DNA from: a virus
IMG/VR virus record: IMGVR_UViG_3300048507_000465
Span: 18,017-82,016 of that record
Direction: 5' to 3' (one strand)
DNA length: 64,000 nt
In this document: one piece after another, positions 402 through 10,594 of the stretch
How positions within the stretch are numbered: position 1 is the first letter of the stretch
How the letters are laid out: each line of letters begins with the position of its first letter
Translations under genes and position numbers: made by a program
Notes under the pieces: model-generated
What the model was told of the DNA's origin: nothing
Databases searched by the model: none
What the model saw: the letters and a program-made list of their open reading frames with translations, nothing else

Positions 402-1317
402 CTATGGATATTGTTGCATTAATATGCAACTTAGAAAGCAGAAACCAAGTATTACTACAAATCGTTCTATGATTAAACGTACGTTTATGGCTAAAGGCCC
501 AGACTATGCATCAGAACTTATTGTACAAAATGTACGAGACCTACGTGAAATTATTAAATGGAATGAGGCAAATGGTCTTAAACTTTATCGTATGTCTTCA
601 GATATTATGCCTTGGATGTCTGAGTACAATATTTCAGATCTTAAAGATTTTAAAATTATTAGAACTATTCTAGAAGACTGTGGCGATCTAGCTAGGGAGT
701 ACGGTCAGAGGATTACATTCCACCCTGGACCATTCGATGTCCTCGCATCACTAAATGAAAACGTAGTAACCAAATCTATTGCTGACCTCAACAAGCATGG
801 TGAAATATTCGACCTTATGGGTCTACCGCGTACTCCCTATGCTGCGATCAATATTCATGTCAATACTACACAAGGTGGTAAAGATGTTGCAATGCAAAGA
901 TTCGTAGATAACTTTCACTTACTTGATGCTTCAGTTCGTAAACGTCTAGTTGTTGAGAATGACGACAAGCAAAAACAGTATGCAACAGAAGATCTTTATC
1001 AAGGTATTCACAACAAGATTGGTATTCCTATTACATTTGACTATCATCACCATTGGTGCCATCCAGGAGAATTGACTCAAGAGGAGGCTCTTAAGTTGGC
1101 TTCTACTACTTGGCCTAAAGATATTAAACAACTTTGCCATTATTCTTCATGTAAGCAAATCCATGAAGATGCGACAGTAATGGCTAGGGCTCATGCCGAC
1201 TACATATATGAACATATCAATACTTATGGGTTAGATCTCGATATTGAACTTGAGGCTAAAGCTAAAGAAATGGCAGTTCAAAAATATATGAAACAATTTG
1301 CAACACAATTAGTATAA
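394..1317 (+). CDS. uvsE: UV damage endonuclease UvsE/UVDE
   Basis: Motifs GYCCIN, YRMSS, HPG, ENDD, FDYHHH, HAD, EAKAKE typical of the UvdE TIM-barrel. Confidence 0.95.
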   Translation: MTNYGYCCINMQLRKQKPSITTNRSMIKRTFMAKGPDYASELIVQNVRDLREIIKWNEANGLKLYRMSSDIMPWMSEYNISDLKDFKIIRTILEDCGDLAREYGQRITFHPGPFDVLASLNENVVTKSIADLNKHGEIFDLMGLPRTPYAAINIHVNTTQGGKDVAMQRFVDNFHLLDASVRKRLVVENDDKQKQYATEDLYQGIHNKIGIPITFDYHHHWCHPGELTQEEALKLASTTWPKDIKQLCHYSSCKQIHEDATVMARAHADYIYEHINTYGLDLDIELEAKAKEMAVQKYMKQFATQLV

Positions 1318-3187: not shown

Positions 3188-4864
3188 ATGAAGTATATTC
3201 AAACTCTTACTGAAAAGGGAAAGCTTAAATGGCAAGACTCTGATGCGCCGGATGCTAATGGTAGATTTAAAGACTTAAGTCCTAAAGATCTAGCAGCATG
3301 GTTAATTAAAACCAGAAAGGGTGATATGAAAAAGATTAGTGGTTCACTAAGTCAACAAGTTGCATTTAATAAAAACGACGATCCTGAATACGCAAAGAAA
3401 ATGGATAAGACTAGAACAGAAGTCTACAAGCAAATGGATAGAGAAGATCTATTAGAATCTGTCTTAAACGAAGAGGATTCATATAACGATTATCCAGCTG
3501 CTGCAAAGAAGAATGCACAGATGGCTATTGATTGGAAAGAGAAGTATGGTAGAGATGAAGTACCTGCTGGGACTCCAGTTGGTTGGGCAAGAGCTCATCA
3601 ATTAGCTAAAGGTGAAAAGATCTCAGCAGATACTGTAAAGAGAATGTCTGCATTTAATAGACACAGAAAAAATTCATCAATTGCACCAGAACATAAAGAC
3701 GAACCTTGGAAAGATAATGGCTATGTAGCTTGGTTAATCTGGGGTGGCGACGAAGGTGTTGATTGGGCAATTGAAAAATCAAAAGAAATAGACGCTATGA
3801 AAGAGTCAAAACAAATGAAGTACATTAAACCACTTAACGAAAGAGCTAAACACACATCAACTGATTTTTCTAAACCAGGTAACGATGGTGATATTTACTT
3901 TTCAAAAAGAGAAGGTGACGCAGTCGGCGTTAGATTAGGAGATAAATTACAAATGATTTATGTTTTTCAAGAAGAACCTAAATTAGGAAGGATTCAAAAG
4001 TCAGATAAACGTTGGGAAAACATGGGTCCAGCTTCTGAAGAACTTTTAATTGATTTAAGAGGTAGAGAAGAAGGTAAAATCTTATTTAAGTTTGTTTCTA
4101 CACTTGAAGAATCAGTTAATGAAGGTAAGATGCCGAAGAAATATATTGGCAACGATGAGATAGTCTATCTTAAAACTAAAGAGGATTCAAGAGGTGCTCA
4201 TTACAACCTTTACTACAAAGGGCACGATATTGATAAAGGTGGTCGTAGGTTTGGTAGTGAAAAAGAGCTAGAAGATTTTGCAGCTAATTATATTTTATCT
4301 AACCAATTGTATAAGAAACTAAGGTATGAAGATTCAATACCTTTACCAGAGTCTGTTAATGAAAGTCTTGGTTCTTATGAATATAATAAGTGGATTAAAG
4401 AGAATGGTAAAATTAAATACCCTAAATGGGTTACAGTAACTCGTAAAGAAATTATTAAAAAGGGATTAATGGATTCAGTATATGATTCTGAATCTCACAA
4501 CATGTCTATTTGGATTAACTCTTTAGGTAAGAATTTCTTTGTAATTAACGCTGACTCAAAGAAGAGAGAAAAAGAGTTTGGTAAAAACGGTTCTGCATTT
4601 ATTAATGCATATTACAATGATATAACTGGATATACCGCTTTTGCATGGGAAGCTGCTACAATTTGCCTAGAACTTATTAAACACATAGAGGACAGAATTG
4701 CTAATGGGGAGGAATATGAACCGGCGTACTATTTAGCTAAAGAATATTTTAATAATTTTGGGATGGATACTAAAAGAAGTAGAGTATTTGATTCTACAGT
4801 TAAAAAGCTAAGTAATTATATGGCTGATAATAATCTTGATTCTATGGATTATATGAATAGGTAA
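3188..4864 (+). CDS. modular putative head-internal polyprotein
   Basis: Starts MKYIQTLTE; modules separated by LESVLNE, MKYIKPLNE, EESVNE, PESVNE; one module has the VAWLIWGGD motif of a common phage head-associated domain. Confidence 0.7.
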   Translation: MKYIQTLTEKGKLKWQDSDAPDANGRFKDLSPKDLAAWLIKTRKGDMKKISGSLSQQVAFNKNDDPEYAKKMDKTRTEVYKQMDREDLLESVLNEEDSYNDYPAAAKKNAQMAIDWKEKYGRDEVPAGTPVGWARAHQLAKGEKISADTVKRMSAFNRHRKNSSIAPEHKDEPWKDNGYVAWLIWGGDEGVDWAIEKSKEIDAMKESKQMKYIKPLNERAKHTSTDFSKPGNDGDIYFSKREGDAVGVRLGDKLQMIYVFQEEPKLGRIQKSDKRWENMGPASEELLIDLRGREEGKILFKFVSTLEESVNEGKMPKKYIGNDEIVYLKTKEDSRGAHYNLYYKGHDIDKGGRRFGSEKELEDFAANYILSNQLYKKLRYEDSIPLPESVNESLGSYEYNKWIKENGKIKYPKWVTVTRKEIIKKGLMDSVYDSESHNMSIWINSLGKNFFVINADSKKREKEFGKNGSAFINAYYNDITGYTAFAWEAATICLELIKHIEDRIANGEEYEPAYYLAKEYFNNFGMDTKRSRVFDSTVKKLSNYMADNNLDSMDYMNR

Positions 4865-6958: not shown

Positions 6959-7582
6959 ATGGCAAAAAAAATACTATCATTCGAAGAATACGCTGCAAAA
7001 ATAAATGCACCTAACGTTTCTGAAGAAGAAAACGAAGAGTGCCCGTGTGGTACTGATGAAGAAGGTAACTGTTTAGAATGTGAAGAAGGAACAGAAAAAC
7101 CAGCTGAAGAAATAGAAGACGAAGAAGTTGAGTCTGAAGAAGACGAAGAAGTTGAGTCTGGAGAAGACGACGATGACGACGATGACGATGATGAAGAAGA
7201 CGATGATGACGATGACGACGACGATGATGATGACGATGATGACGATGATGAGTCTGAAGAAGTTGAAGTAGAAGATGCTGGAGAAACAGAAGCCCCGGTA
7301 ACTGTAGAAGAGATGTTATCTGAAGGTTACAAAAAAGTAGTTGAAGCTGCATGTGCTTACGAAAAAGACGAATACCAAGATCATACGTTAGAAATGTACA
7401 TGAAAGAGAACGCTGCTCTAGTAGCAACTCTTGCTGCAAAAGCGATGGAAGAGGGTTATGGTGAAGCAAAAGAAACTGAACTAACTCAAGAAATGTACGA
7501 AGCAGTATGTAACGAAATAAAAGATGCGTATTGTAAGAAAATTGAAGAGTTAAAAGAGACTTACGGTGCTGGAAAGGAATAA
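6959..7582 (+). CDS. highly acidic putative prohead core/scaffold-like protein
   Basis: MAKKILSFEEY start; long D/E tract; helical C-terminus. Confidence 0.6.
   Translation: MAKKILSFEEYAAKINAPNVSEEENEECPCGTDEEGNCLECEEGTEKPAEEIEDEEVESEEDEEVESGEDDDDDDDDDEEDDDDDDDDDDDDDDDDDESEEVEVEDAGETEAPVTVEEMLSEGYKKVVEAACAYEKDEYQDHTLEMYMKENAALVATLAAKAMEEGYGEAKETELTQEMYEAVCNEIKDAYCKKIEELKETYGAGKE
7115..7249 (+). repeat. 24-bp tandem duplication (EDEEVESE/G) followed by a GAY poly-Asp tract
   Basis: gaagacgaagaagttgagtctg at 7115 and 7139; gac/gat run 7166-7249. Confidence 0.85.
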
Positions 7583-7589
7583 TACAACT

Positions 7590-8219
7590 ATGAAATTCAT
7601 AAAATCAATTAACGAATTAAACGAAGCACGTCAAGCCCCTGCTAAAAAACTATTTAAGATGGTAGTTAAAGGTAGCACTTCTGAAATTGAAGGTCAAAAG
7701 ATCTCTAAGGAAATGGCTCAAGCTGCATTAGACTGGTTTGATAGATCTACTTATGCTAGAAAATACGAAAAGCAGGTTAAGACTGCTGGTATGGGAGCTG
7801 TTGCTCCACTAATCTTTGGTGACTATTGGGGTATTAAGAAAACTATTCCTTCTAAACTTAAAGCAGAATTTAAAGAGCTACAACAAGTATATAAAAGAGA
7901 AATGGCAGCTGAGTCAATTTTAACTGAGTCAGATGCAACTCCTACAATGTTATTAGCTCAAGAGATTGAAGGTGCTGAATACCACATGGCTTTCTCAGAC
8001 GGTGGTATTGGTGTAGATGCTAGATCGACTAAGAAGACTTGGGAAGATGGAGTACCGGTACTTAAGTATATTGCAAGAGCACCTAAGAAATCAGTAGAAA
8101 TACCAAAGGGTAAATTTGAAGTAGTTATCGATGATAAATACGGATGGTACTACTGGGAGAACAAGGGTATCTGGTATGGAATGGAACAAGATGGAGAAGC
8201 ACCTCCATTTGAGTATTAA
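7590..8219 (+). CDS. putative two-module head-internal protein
   Basis: Likely start is ATG 7590 (MKFIKSINELNE) rather than GTG 7566; internal AESILTE linker. Confidence 0.65.
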   Translation: MKFIKSINELNEARQAPAKKLFKMVVKGSTSEIEGQKISKEMAQAALDWFDRSTYARKYEKQVKTAGMGAVAPLIFGDYWGIKKTIPSKLKAEFKELQQVYKREMAAESILTESDATPTMLLAQEIEGAEYHMAFSDGGIGVDARSTKKTWEDGVPVLKYIARAPKKSVEIPKGKFEVVIDDKYGWYYWENKGIWYGMEQDGEAPPFEY

Positions 8220-8236
8220 AAAAAAGAACCACTATT

Positions 8237-8302
8237 ATGAATTGCGAATGTCAAGTATGTAAGTGTGGAACGTCATGTAATTGCTCTTGTTGCGATTGCT
8301 AA
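8237..8302 (+). CDS. metallothionein-like microprotein (21 aa, 9 Cys), not in the ORF track
   Basis: Translates MNCECQVCKCGTSCNCSCCDC*; CxC/CxxC/CC spacing; A-rich leader, followed by a terminator. Confidence 0.65.
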   Translation: MNCECQVCKCGTSCNCSCCDC

Positions 8303-8320
8303 GCAGGCACACATTTTAAT

Positions 8321-8347
8321 AAACTTTTTAAAGAGTCTGTGTATAAC
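8321..8347 (+). promoter_or_regulatory. putative AAAC-N17-TATAA promoter for the dCMP deaminase/helicase operon
   Basis: AAAC 8321-8324 and TATAAC 8342-8347; same architecture as sites at 51894-51922(-), 52496 and 52721. Confidence 0.5.
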
Positions 8348-8370
8348 AATAGTAACATAGACTCTTTTTT
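8330..8370 (+). terminator. Rho-independent terminator overlapping the promoter
   Basis: AAAGAGTCTGTGT...ACATAGACTCTTT stem followed by a T run. Confidence 0.7.
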
Positions 8371-8372
8371 AT

Positions 8373-8879
8373 ATGCCTAGAATACCAGTAGACTTAATTT
8401 ATATGCAGATGGCTTATCAGATAGCCAAGCTATCCTATGCTAAACGTAGACGCGTTGGTTGTATTATCGTGAAAGATACACAAGTAATATCAACTGGATA
8501 TAACGGTACGCCACATGGCTTTGAAAATGATTGTGAAGAAGTACAGGTAAGAGAGATAGAGAATGTTAATCATAAAAAAGTCTTAGAAGAAAAGGGCTAT
8601 GAATGTGAAGACTCATGTTGTTCTAAAGAGGTAACTAAAAGAGAAGTCTTACATGCAGAATCAAATGCATTAGCGAAAGTAAGCAAATCAACACTATCTT
8701 CAGAAGGCGCAGATATGTATGTTACAACTTGCCCATGTTTTGATTGCGCAAAATTAATTATTCAAGCAGGTATTGCAAGAGTATTCTATTCAGAAGACTA
8801 TAGAGATATGGGAGGAGTAGAACTACTAGAACGTGCAGGTATTGAAGTAAAAGCAGTTATATGTTGGAACGCGGAATAG
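8373..8879 (+). CDS. dCMP deaminase
   Basis: VGC, GYNG, HAESNA and PCFDC zinc-deaminase motifs. Confidence 0.93.
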   Translation: MPRIPVDLIYMQMAYQIAKLSYAKRRRVGCIIVKDTQVISTGYNGTPHGFENDCEEVQVREIENVNHKKVLEEKGYECEDSCCSKEVTKREVLHAESNALAKVSKSTLSSEGADMYVTTCPCFDCAKLIIQAGIARVFYSEDYRDMGGVELLERAGIEVKAVICWNAE

Positions 8880-10594
8880 CCGAAATCATAAATGAGGCAC
8901 TAGTCACAAATGTATTTGGCAAAGACTTTAAATTTAGAGAGGGTCAAAGAGAGGCTATTGAAGCTATTTGTAATCACTATCTCCAAGATCCAGAAGGGAC
9001 TATTATCTTAGATGCCCCAACTGGAAGTGGTAAATCACTAATTGCTATGTGGTCCGCACACGTCTTAAAAGAACTTGGTAAAAGAGGTTATTTAGTAACC
9101 TCTGATCTAATGCTACAAGATCAGTATGAAGAAGACTTTAAAAGGCTAAAACTTAATTGGCCCAGTATAAGAGGAGTAGACAACTATAATTGTAATGTAA
9201 ACGATCTGCCATTCTCACTTGCTGATTGTAAGATGAAAGGTATTGGGTATGAAGCTGCTGAGAAACTTCCATGCTGGAATAACTGTGGGTATCTTCAGGG
9301 CAGAAAGCGCGCGAAGGAGCTACCTGTAGCTCTCTTCAACTATTCATATTATCTAATACAAAGGAATTATGTAGAGGATAAGATGCAAGAACAAGACAGA
9401 GAGATACCATTTCCTATAAGAGACTTTGTATTCTTTGATGAAGCACATAAGGTAGACAGTATAGTACAATCACACTTTAGTCCTAGAATAGACAGAACAA
9501 CTACAAAGATATTTAAAGAGGTAAACAAGTTTGTACAGAAGCAGGCCATTAGTGCTGCCTGGGTATCTGAGAACAGAATAGAAGATATAGTCGACCGCTT
9601 AATGCGGGAAGACGATCACCAAGAGTTGATGAGGCACATCAGCGAGTTCAGAGGTATTGCCGTGGTTTACCGCAAGGTCAGATCGGCGGCCCTAAAACAA
9701 AGTAAGTCAAGGTTTAAAGGGGGAGATGTCCCTAAGGATTGGCAGACTTTTTTTGGACGAATGGATAGACTTAAAGATATATGGTGTAAGTTTGATGACT
9801 ATTATGATATAATTAAAGAACTTGGTATGGACGCGATTGTTATTGATCGTAAAGAAACTGAAACTAAATTCTTATGTTTGGAAGAGGCAATGATGATTGA
9901 TAAATTCTTACAAAAGAAAAGTGGCTTTAAAGTCTTTATGTCAGCGACTCTAGGGGATATTAGATCATTTGCAAAACATACTAGTATGGGAGCTGCAAAG
10001 GTTATTAGGATGAACAATAATTTTGATTACAAAAAATCCCCCGTGGTTTTCGTCAATAGGCACAAATTGTCTTTTAGAGAACGCGAACAAAATCTCCCCA
10101 AGGTCATAAAGGTTCTTGACAAGATCTTGGAGAAGCACAAAGGACAAAGTGGAATTATTCACGCCGGTTCCTATCAGTTCATGAATGAAATAAATGCTCA
10201 GTCTAAACATAGTTTTAATTTCATAACCTATGATGTAGCCAAGGAGAGGCAAGGTGCAATTAGAAATTTTAACGAACAAGATGGTAAAATACTTGTAGGT
10301 CCTTCTCTGTTAGAAGGTTTAGACCTGAAAGATGACAAGTCCAGATTTCAGATCTTCTTTAAAGTACCATATCCATCATTGGGAGATCCACTCGTAAAGG
10401 CTAAAATGTCTGCATTCCCAGGATGGTATGATTGGAAAACAGGAATTGCAATACAACAAGGTGCAGGAAGATCGATTAGATCTAAAGACGATTGGGCAAT
10501 AACATATATTTTAGACGCATGTTTTAGAAGTTTATCTAATAAAAAAGATTTCTTTCCACCGTCGTTTGAAGAAAGAATAAAAACAATTTACTAA
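8861..10594 (+). CDS. DinG/Rad3-like SF2 helicase
   Basis: REGQ Q-motif, APTGSGKS, four Cys (Fe-S region), DEAH, MSATLG, EGLD, KVPYP, QGAGRSIR. Confidence 0.9.
   Translation: MLERGIAEIINEALVTNVFGKDFKFREGQREAIEAICNHYLQDPEGTIILDAPTGSGKSLIAMWSAHVLKELGKRGYLVTSDLMLQDQYEEDFKRLKLNWPSIRGVDNYNCNVNDLPFSLADCKMKGIGYEAAEKLPCWNNCGYLQGRKRAKELPVALFNYSYYLIQRNYVEDKMQEQDREIPFPIRDFVFFDEAHKVDSIVQSHFSPRIDRTTTKIFKEVNKFVQKQAISAAWVSENRIEDIVDRLMREDDHQELMRHISEFRGIAVVYRKVRSAALKQSKSRFKGGDVPKDWQTFFGRMDRLKDIWCKFDDYYDIIKELGMDAIVIDRKETETKFLCLEEAMMIDKFLQKKSGFKVFMSATLGDIRSFAKHTSMGAAKVIRMNNNFDYKKSPVVFVNRHKLSFREREQNLPKVIKVLDKILEKHKGQSGIIHAGSYQFMNEINAQSKHSFNFITYDVAKERQGAIRNFNEQDGKILVGPSLLEGLDLKDDKSRFQIFFKVPYPSLGDPLVKAKMSAFPGWYDWKTGIAIQQGAGRSIRSKDDWAITYILDACFRSLSNKKDFFPPSFEERIKTIY

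Follow-up and report, generated by a model that had tools for sequence, protein, structure and literature searches.

The ORF at positions 8237–8302 (plus strand) of the window, a 64 kb stretch of DNA that forms the last part of an 82 kb IMG/VR viral contig (CheckV completeness 30 %), is, to judge from its pattern of codon substitution, a genuine protein-coding microgene whose Cys residues appear essential and are under strong purifying selection. Its product of 21 aa is probably a single-cluster metallothionein-like metal buffer or sequestrant of marine flavobacteria, carried as an accessory gene by their phages (probability roughly 0.6). It most likely represents a new, unannotated metallothionein-like family whose host range includes phages, set apart from the known small metallothioneins by the differences given at the end of this paper.

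The microgene and its surroundings

The ORF consists of 21 codons, from the ATG at 8237 to the TAA stop codon at 8300–8302, and encodes MNCECQVCKCGTSCNCSCCDC. Nine of the 21 residues (43 %) are Cys, encoded by five TGT and four TGC codons and arranged as CxC, CxxC and CC motifs, and there are no aromatic residues and no His. This agrees with an earlier reading of the DNA made without database searches (the sequence-only reading), which had described an ORF from ATG to TAA of 21 aa with nine Cys, both Cys codons and no aromatic residues. The Cys spacing, CxCxxCxCxxxCxCxCCxC with the stop codon directly after it, is the invariant pattern of the family described below; it had a single match in the window, even when three mismatches were allowed, and was found only once in the whole 82 kb contig.

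Immediately upstream lies a 17 nt A-rich leader, AAAAAAGAACCACTATT (8220–8236, plus strand), with A at −3, at −6 and at −12 to −17, a translation initiation region of the Bacteroidia type; no Shine–Dalgarno sequence was present in these 17 nt. Leader and ORF together form a cassette of 83 nt (8220–8302, plus strand), which is an indel with respect to most syntenic relatives in an alignment of 24 loci. The cassette is followed by a conserved spacer block, GCAGGCACACATTTTAATAAACTTTTT (8303–8329, plus strand), which lies outside it and is also found in relatives without the ORF, and then by a terminator-like hairpin and T-run (8330–8371, plus strand) with a 13 bp stem that contains one G–U pair in the window; this structure ends 2 nt before the ATG of the next gene and was kept in all aligned relatives, whether the ORF was present or absent.

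The flanking genes, given here for context, are all on the plus strand: upstream a gene for a protein of 217 aa with no Pfam family (7566–8219), and downstream the genes for a dCMP/cytidine deaminase with the zinc-binding domain PF00383 (8373–8879) and for a Rad3/DinG-like helicase (8861–10594; Helicase_C_2, ResIII and DEAD). No tRNA genes were found within the window. In the helicase, four Cys residues (C111, C123, C138 and C142) are located between GSGKS (motif I) and DEAH (motif II), and no DEAD_2 domain was reported by Pfam; the position of these residues is that of the Fe-S domain in XPD/DinG-type helicases. The sequence-only reading had placed an A-rich leader, a terminator, a Zn-dependent deaminase and an Fe-S helicase around the ORF. 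The first three were confirmed, the hairpin and T-run being located directly before the deaminase start at 8373, and the four Cys residues between the Walker A and DEAH motifs would fit the fourth.

The block before the hairpin, ACACAT-TTTA-AAACTTTT, was kept across relatives with differing upstream genes (window positions 8303–8372, all aligned loci). This block before the deaminase may hold a phage promoter, or the hairpin may serve another role.

Size, composition and distribution of the family

IMG/VR was scanned for the bare Cys spacing, and more specific patterns each gave at least 120 viral matches. The raw matches to the bare pattern were mostly poly-Cys readings of TGC/TGT (GCA/ACA) repeats, including those in all giant-virus (GVMAG) contigs, and were set aside. 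Every non-repeat match had an ATG zero to two codons ahead of the first Cys, and its stop codon directly followed the last; neither feature was required by the pattern. In total, more than 120 viral contigs in IMG/VR carry the family, with 106 distinct DNA versions and 97 distinct peptides among the matches listed. A scan of prokaryotes with one genome per species returned 37 stretches, 34 of them family members, all from MAGs or single-cell genomes of marine Bacteroidota (Flavobacteriaceae, Flavobacteriales, Cryomorphaceae, Marinoscillum, other Cytophagales and ‘uncultured Bacteroidetes’), the habitat of the carriers being assigned from record titles and run labels. Two matches were excluded: L436, from an archaeal MAG, in which the ORF has 33 aa, a Shine–Dalgarno sequence and a different Cys layout, and L228, in which a stop codon interrupts the motif.

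The preponderance of poly-Cys repeats among raw matches in public contigs speaks for a functionless chance ORF or low-complexity artefact. The window sequence is no such repeat, however, none of 100 dinucleotide-preserving shuffles matched the pattern, and coding-type substitution patterns are seen in the homologues, which number more than 120 in viruses and 34 in bacteria. The reading as a chance ORF is refuted by these conservation data and its probability is negligible.

Peptides of the family are 20–23 aa long (viral ones mostly 20–22 aa), with rare forms of 30 and 36 aa, and are composed of C, N, K, S, T, D, G and E; only three of 138 distinct sequences contained any F, W, Y or H. The 36 aa form is a phage variant, MRNRQNCNCENCKCQKACNCMKCNCSKSCDCACCDC (L346, positions 798–905, minus strand), with 13 Cys residues, in which the standard module is preceded by an extra N-terminal CxCxxCxC half-module; this resembles the modular growth that is typical of metallothioneins.

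Gly was found at core position 9 in 85 of the 106 viral sequences among the matches listed, compared with none of 32 bacterial sequences, and by this mark the phage copies are, in sequence terms, a distinct subfamily. Because the residue marks the viral copies, spread among phages is suggested rather than repeated recent capture. The same residue could reflect adaptation to a target, and binding to host proteins is how many accessory microproteins of phages act; the peptide might on these grounds be a small regulatory or inhibitory ligand of a specific host protein, or a binder of Fe-S or another cofactor, in the manner of a zinc-knuckle-type phage effector. We consider this quite unlikely, since every variable position is polar and diverges strongly, which would leave little surface for specific recognition, and since the peptide has only one CxxC motif, which is unlike the 4Fe-4S binding motifs known to us. 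Furthermore, the near-core chromosomal copy that the hosts themselves possess (see below) would fit housekeeping chemistry better than an anti-host role.

Viral copies among the matches listed were distributed over at least five unrelated gene neighbourhoods, of 30, 11, 6, 5 and 2+2 loci plus singletons. The terminase of the largest group and that of Flavobacterium phage vB_FspM_immuto were 60 % identical. These neighbourhoods bear on whether the peptide might be a RiPP precursor, for example of a Cys-derived chalkophore or a thioether peptide: short ORFs that are rich in Cys, end in Cys and are missed by gene callers, as this one is, are typical of RiPP precursors. No maturase (radical SAM, YcaO, LanM or MbnB/C-like) was revealed by neighbour clustering and Pfam annotation of 94 loci, either in the window or in the bacterial and phage neighbourhoods, the ORF moves alone as the 83 nt cassette and recurs in at least five unrelated phage contexts, and there is no division into leader and core, the whole peptide being the Cys motif. 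A RiPP precursor is very unlikely on this evidence.

Occurrence of the cassette in syntenic phage relatives

The synteny sample comprised 80 viral loci fetched via the deaminase and 16 fetched via the upstream gene. About two of the 80 deaminase-retrieved relatives carried the ORF (L024/L002 and L026 only). The ORF of L002/L024 was nearly identical to that in the window, with two synonymous changes, and the peptide of L026, MNCNCKECKCEGSCNCSCCDC, differed from it at five of the ten non-Cys core residues and kept all nine Cys residues, with two TGT/TGC switches. L026 has a different upstream gene, yet its leader is the same as in the window and L024, which indicates that the leader moves together with the ORF. 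In relatives without the cassette, the TAA of the upstream gene was followed at once by GCAGGCACACAT in the 24-locus alignment. Because the cassette is an 83 nt indel, with spacer and hairpin conserved regardless of the ORF, the microgene is an accessory cassette in a variable slot and not a fixed partner of the deaminase and helicase.

The best matches of the helicase of the window lineage were in jumbo phages. Most of these are phages of Bacteroidota (Prevotella Lak phages, Chryseobacterium MA9V-2 and Tenacibaculum pT24), the others being Sphingomonas phage PAU and an uncultured 462 kb phage. No copy of the microgene was detected by pattern scan in Flavobacterium phage immuto, Tenacibaculum phage pT24, Chryseobacterium phage MA9V-2 or the uncultured 462 kb phage LR756500. 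The microgene is dispensable, since most close phage relatives lack it, as do the cultured phages immuto, pT24 and MA9V-2. The proposal in the sequence-only reading that the peptide might serve the adjacent Zn-dependent deaminase and Fe-S helicase gained no support from linkage, because few syntenic relatives carry the ORF (about two of 80) and because it occurs in at least five unrelated phage neighbourhoods and on bacterial chromosomes.

A different conserved micro-ORF, of 20 aa and rich in Trp, was found at the slot equivalent to 8220–8302 in two relatives (L029, positions 3871–3933, and L032, positions 3879–3941). The two products, MKKAKQIFWEYWIKPWKPAY (L029) and MRKAKQIFWEYWIKPWKPVY (L032), are encoded with several synonymous differences, and both ORFs overlap the upstream stop codon (TAATG). 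Alternative microgenes seem to favour this intergenic slot.

One further stretch among the 37 from the prokaryotic scan belongs to this phage lineage, a close relative on a contig of 57.8 kb in a Flavobacteriaceae MAG (L440; PAUJ01000008.1). It shares the leader, the ORF (ending SCCNC), the spacer and the hairpin with the window, and its binning into this MAG provides a weak link to a host.

The position of the ORF, which is rich in Cys codons and ends 28 nt upstream of a strong hairpin and T-run directly preceding the next gene, would also suit a cis-acting leader peptide, in which stalling at the nine Cys codons senses Cys-tRNA and attenuates the deaminase–helicase operon via the hairpin. 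However, hairpin and spacer were kept in every one of the 24 syntenic relatives aligned, almost all of them without the ORF, and in the predicted fold the ORF did not pair with the 5′ arm of the hairpin to form an antiterminator. The peptide is also encoded in at least five other phage contexts and at bacterial loci with different downstream sequences, and the sensing of codons would need neither a fixed Cys spacing nor conserved Ser and Gly residues. Attenuation of this kind is highly improbable.

Selection on the coding sequence and signals of expression

A test independent of the Cys pattern was carried out on 80 loci of a second phage lineage, which were retrieved via a dehydrogenase-like neighbour gene and searched for ORFs of 12–45 aa with at least five Cys residues. 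This unbiased scan revealed 10 Cys-rich micro-ORFs, all 10 of which had the identical Cys spacing. Together with the three ORFs of the window lineage they gave a set of 13 micro-ORFs, not chosen by the exact pattern, in which variation was compared between codon positions. At the Cys codons, none of the 18 sites at positions 1 and 2 varied, whereas position 3 varied at eight of the nine codons; among the non-Cys codons, 24 of 30 sites varied. A conserved Ser was encoded by codons of both the TCN and AGT families. Since positions 1 and 2 of the Cys codons are fixed, position 3 (TGT/TGC) is free and the non-Cys codons diverge, selection acts on the peptide, and it acts on this frame because TGT/TGC switches would change the amino acid on the opposite strand. 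Purifying selection, as judged from these alignments, covers the nine Cys residues at fixed spacing, one Ser and, in the phage copies, one Gly. Cys conservation with synonymous variation in relatives had been named as a check in the sequence-only reading, and across the 13 micro-ORFs the outcome was strongly positive.

The leaders of the family resembled that in the window: A occupied position −3 in 87 % of the viral leaders and 81 % of the bacterial ones, and position −6 in 78 and 81 %, respectively, and there was an A-run around −11 to −14. Shine–Dalgarno motifs were found in one of 55 viral and none of 32 bacterial leaders. A at −3, A at −6 and the A-run are positions measured as positive determinants of initiation in Flavobacterium johnsoniae, the ribosomes of which ignore Shine–Dalgarno sequences (PMC6847099).

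Fourteen metagenome runs (seawater, marine or viral), from at least 10 studies, contained nearly the complete stretch of the window's phage. The ORF was covered by contigs from two RNA libraries (two studies), one of them identical to the window and the other a strain variant with a synonymous Thr change, the replacement Asp20Asn and all Cys residues intact. These contigs are compatible with transcription and do not prove it. Two other RNA runs (X16 and X18) did not cover the ORF, which carries no weight either way.

Chromosomal copies in marine Bacteroidota

The notion of a phage-specific gene did not hold, since phages share the family with marine Bacteroidota, in which it is chromosomal (34 loci). 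The bacterial copies are syntenic, about 20 loci sharing one neighbourhood with genes for RF1 (prfA), a PurM-like protein, a glutamine-synthetase-like protein (glnA-like), a protein of the Na/Ca-exchanger family, a tRNA, pirin and MsrA. Five genomes of 1.3–1.7 Mb had one copy each. Around the genome of L434 (Candidatus Marisimplicoccus), the gene was found in 16 of the 25 closest relatives, the genomes of which are incomplete; it was absent from all 16 more distant relatives, from 150 genomes sampled from the family and from 400 sampled from the order. Candidatus Marisimplicoccus is a genus of the NS5 marine group, which ranks among the most prevalent groups of flavobacteria in the ocean (PMC9122927), and in this genus the gene is near-core, being present in 16 of the 25 closest relatives. 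The family is confined, in the collections searched, to marine Bacteroidota and their phages.

No metal transporter, metal-sensing regulator or other metal-related partner was found among the bacterial neighbours, and because of this the gene context gives no independent support for a role in metal handling. Genes for MsrA and pirin were located within 1–3 kb of the bacterial microgene; through weak guilt by association these, like the Cys content of 43 %, would be in keeping with a metal-free, thiol-rich scavenger of oxidants or electrophiles or a disulfide-knotted peptide, acting as a sacrificial oxidant sink in infection or stress. A sacrificial sink would need neither an invariant spacing of nine Cys residues nor conserved Ser and Gly residues, the odd number of Cys residues leaves one unpaired, and the lack of a signal peptide points to the reducing cytosol, in which disulfide knots are not expected. 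Such a scavenger is unlikely. Both it and the effector considered above explain the invariant nine-Cys geometry and the near-core host copy less well than does a metallothionein-like protein.

Downstream of the bacterial microgene a conserved motif, AAAGTTATTAACAATTT, which includes the 9 bp palindrome GTTATTAAC, was detected at 18 of 34 bacterial loci compared with none of 59 viral loci. Next come a TAnnTTTG-like box and a conserved non-coding stretch of about 250–350 nt with a strong terminator at its end; the element was placed at positions 4697–5060 of L434, with equivalents in L431, L426, L428, L270, L453 and L455. The non-coding stretch looks like an undescribed small RNA or leader, and it matched no family in Rfam (best E=0.018, far below the gathering score).

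At 13 bacterial loci (L270, L328 and L424 among them), a conserved protein of 119–122 aa with no Pfam family, possibly an operon partner, was encoded upstream on the same strand, from about 390 to 25 nt before the microgene.

Database and literature searches

The sequence-only reading had predicted that gene callers would miss the ORF, and the exact peptide and four relatives were indeed absent from 15 billion predicted proteins. The family is missing from predicted-protein collections because its members are shorter than the limits of gene callers. The peptide matched no family in Pfam or NCBIfam at E-values up to 10, no known metallothionein profile and no PHROG, and a profile of 81 members gave no matches at E≤0.001 among 1.84 billion representative proteins, a comparison of low power with 21 positions. 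Because a query of 21 positions has little statistical power, these profile results exclude close membership only. A tblastn search of the peptide against GenBank phages found nothing, probably owing to low-complexity masking and the short query. In the literature searched, nothing relevant was found on metallothioneins of phages, viruses or Bacteroidetes, or on Cys-rich smORFs.

For annotation, this means that a strongly selected family with more than 150 members has been wholly absent from 15 billion predicted proteins.

Proposed function

The features by which metallothioneins are recognized at the sequence level are all found in the microprotein. At 21 aa it is of low molecular weight, well under 10 kDa, nine of its 21 residues are Cys, in CxC, CxxC and CC motifs within an invariant pattern, and aromatic residues and His are lacking in the window peptide and scarce (three of 138 sequences) across the family. 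No signal peptide and no hydrophobic segment or core was found in the peptide sequence. Of the minimal phage metallothionein proposed in the sequence-only reading, the coding microgene and the metallothionein-like sequence features stand, whereas the restriction to phages does not.

A metallothionein-like reading is favoured because the peptide lacks a hydrophobic core, aromatic residues, His and a signal peptide, and consists to 43 % of Cys in the motifs named. Such a peptide would take on a defined structure only by wrapping its thiolates around metal ions, and a defined metal–thiolate cluster is suggested because the nine thiols have an invariant spacing. We thus infer metal binding from composition and from the lack of alternatives. 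Nine thiolates would match the stoichiometry of an M(II)3Cys9 cluster (Zn or Cd) or of a Cu(I)4–6Cys9 cluster. This stoichiometry is a guess by analogy, because nine Cys residues within 19 residues are denser than in any characterized M3Cys9 domain that we know of.

In streamlined marine flavobacteria (NS5 group, Cryomorphaceae and Marinoscillum), the microprotein would act in the cytosol as a buffer, store or detoxifier of trace metals. Phages would express the Gly-9 subfamily during infection and so hold or sequester Zn or Cu, or guard against metal or oxidative stress, a role that would be independent of whichever genes flank the microgene.

If metal is bound, the family would be a new and extremely small type of metallothionein in Bacteroidota and in phages, none having been found described in the literature searched, and would offer metal biochemists a natural scaffold of 21 residues that can be obtained by synthesis. 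It would also be a candidate gene for trace-metal handling in marine flavobacteria that is carried by widespread phages. The fullest version of this proposal is tentative, and we put it at slightly less than even odds: that this is the smallest metallothionein family (21 aa, nine Cys), near-core in NS5-type flavobacteria and borne as a mini-cassette by at least five phage lineages, and that it includes the first phage-borne metallothionein, an auxiliary gene with which viruses would change how infected cells handle Zn, Cu or Cd in an ocean poor in trace metals.

Comparison with known metallothioneins

The SmtA/BmtA family (PF02069) of cyanobacteria and pseudomonads comprises proteins of about 55 aa with His and Cys ligands, aromatic residues and a zinc-finger-like fold; they are cytosolic metal buffers common in marine picoplankton, and the motif CxCxxCxC is also part of their signature. 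The microprotein shares with them this motif, a bacterial and cytosolic setting, richness in Cys and, putatively, metal buffering. It differs in its length of 21 aa, in the absence of His and aromatic residues and, putatively, in the type of fold, and it gave no match to this family even at E-values up to 10.

The only sequence match in the PDB was the wheat metallothionein Ec-1 (2KAK), a non-significant match driven by composition (E=5.8). The local motif C-x-C-G-x-x-C-x-C-x-x-C is shared, as in CKCGTSCNCSC. Unlike the microprotein, wheat Ec-1 is a multi-domain plant protein in which His residues serve as additional ligands.

Fungal copper-thioneins of the Neurospora/Agaricus type have about 25 aa and seven Cys residues, with no CC pair. 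Unlike these eukaryotic proteins, the microprotein has nine Cys residues in another spacing, and no relationship was shown by sequence. The likeness is one of design, since both stand alone, are of almost the same size and are made up of Cys and small polar residues, with a single cluster that is putative in the microprotein.

The β-domain of vertebrate and crustacean metallothioneins has nine Cys residues over about 30 residues and is one half of a two-domain protein. Its cluster comprises nine thiolates, as M(II)3Cys9 or Cu(I)6Cys9 (PMC10243857). The microprotein differs from it in being free-standing at 21 aa, with nine Cys residues within 19 residues and at a different spacing, and no family match links the two. 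It resembles the β-domain in its nine Cys residues, a count already stressed in the sequence-only reading, its repeated CxC motifs and its lack of aromatic residues and His, the fold of the β-domain being one that exists only around its metal–thiolate cluster.
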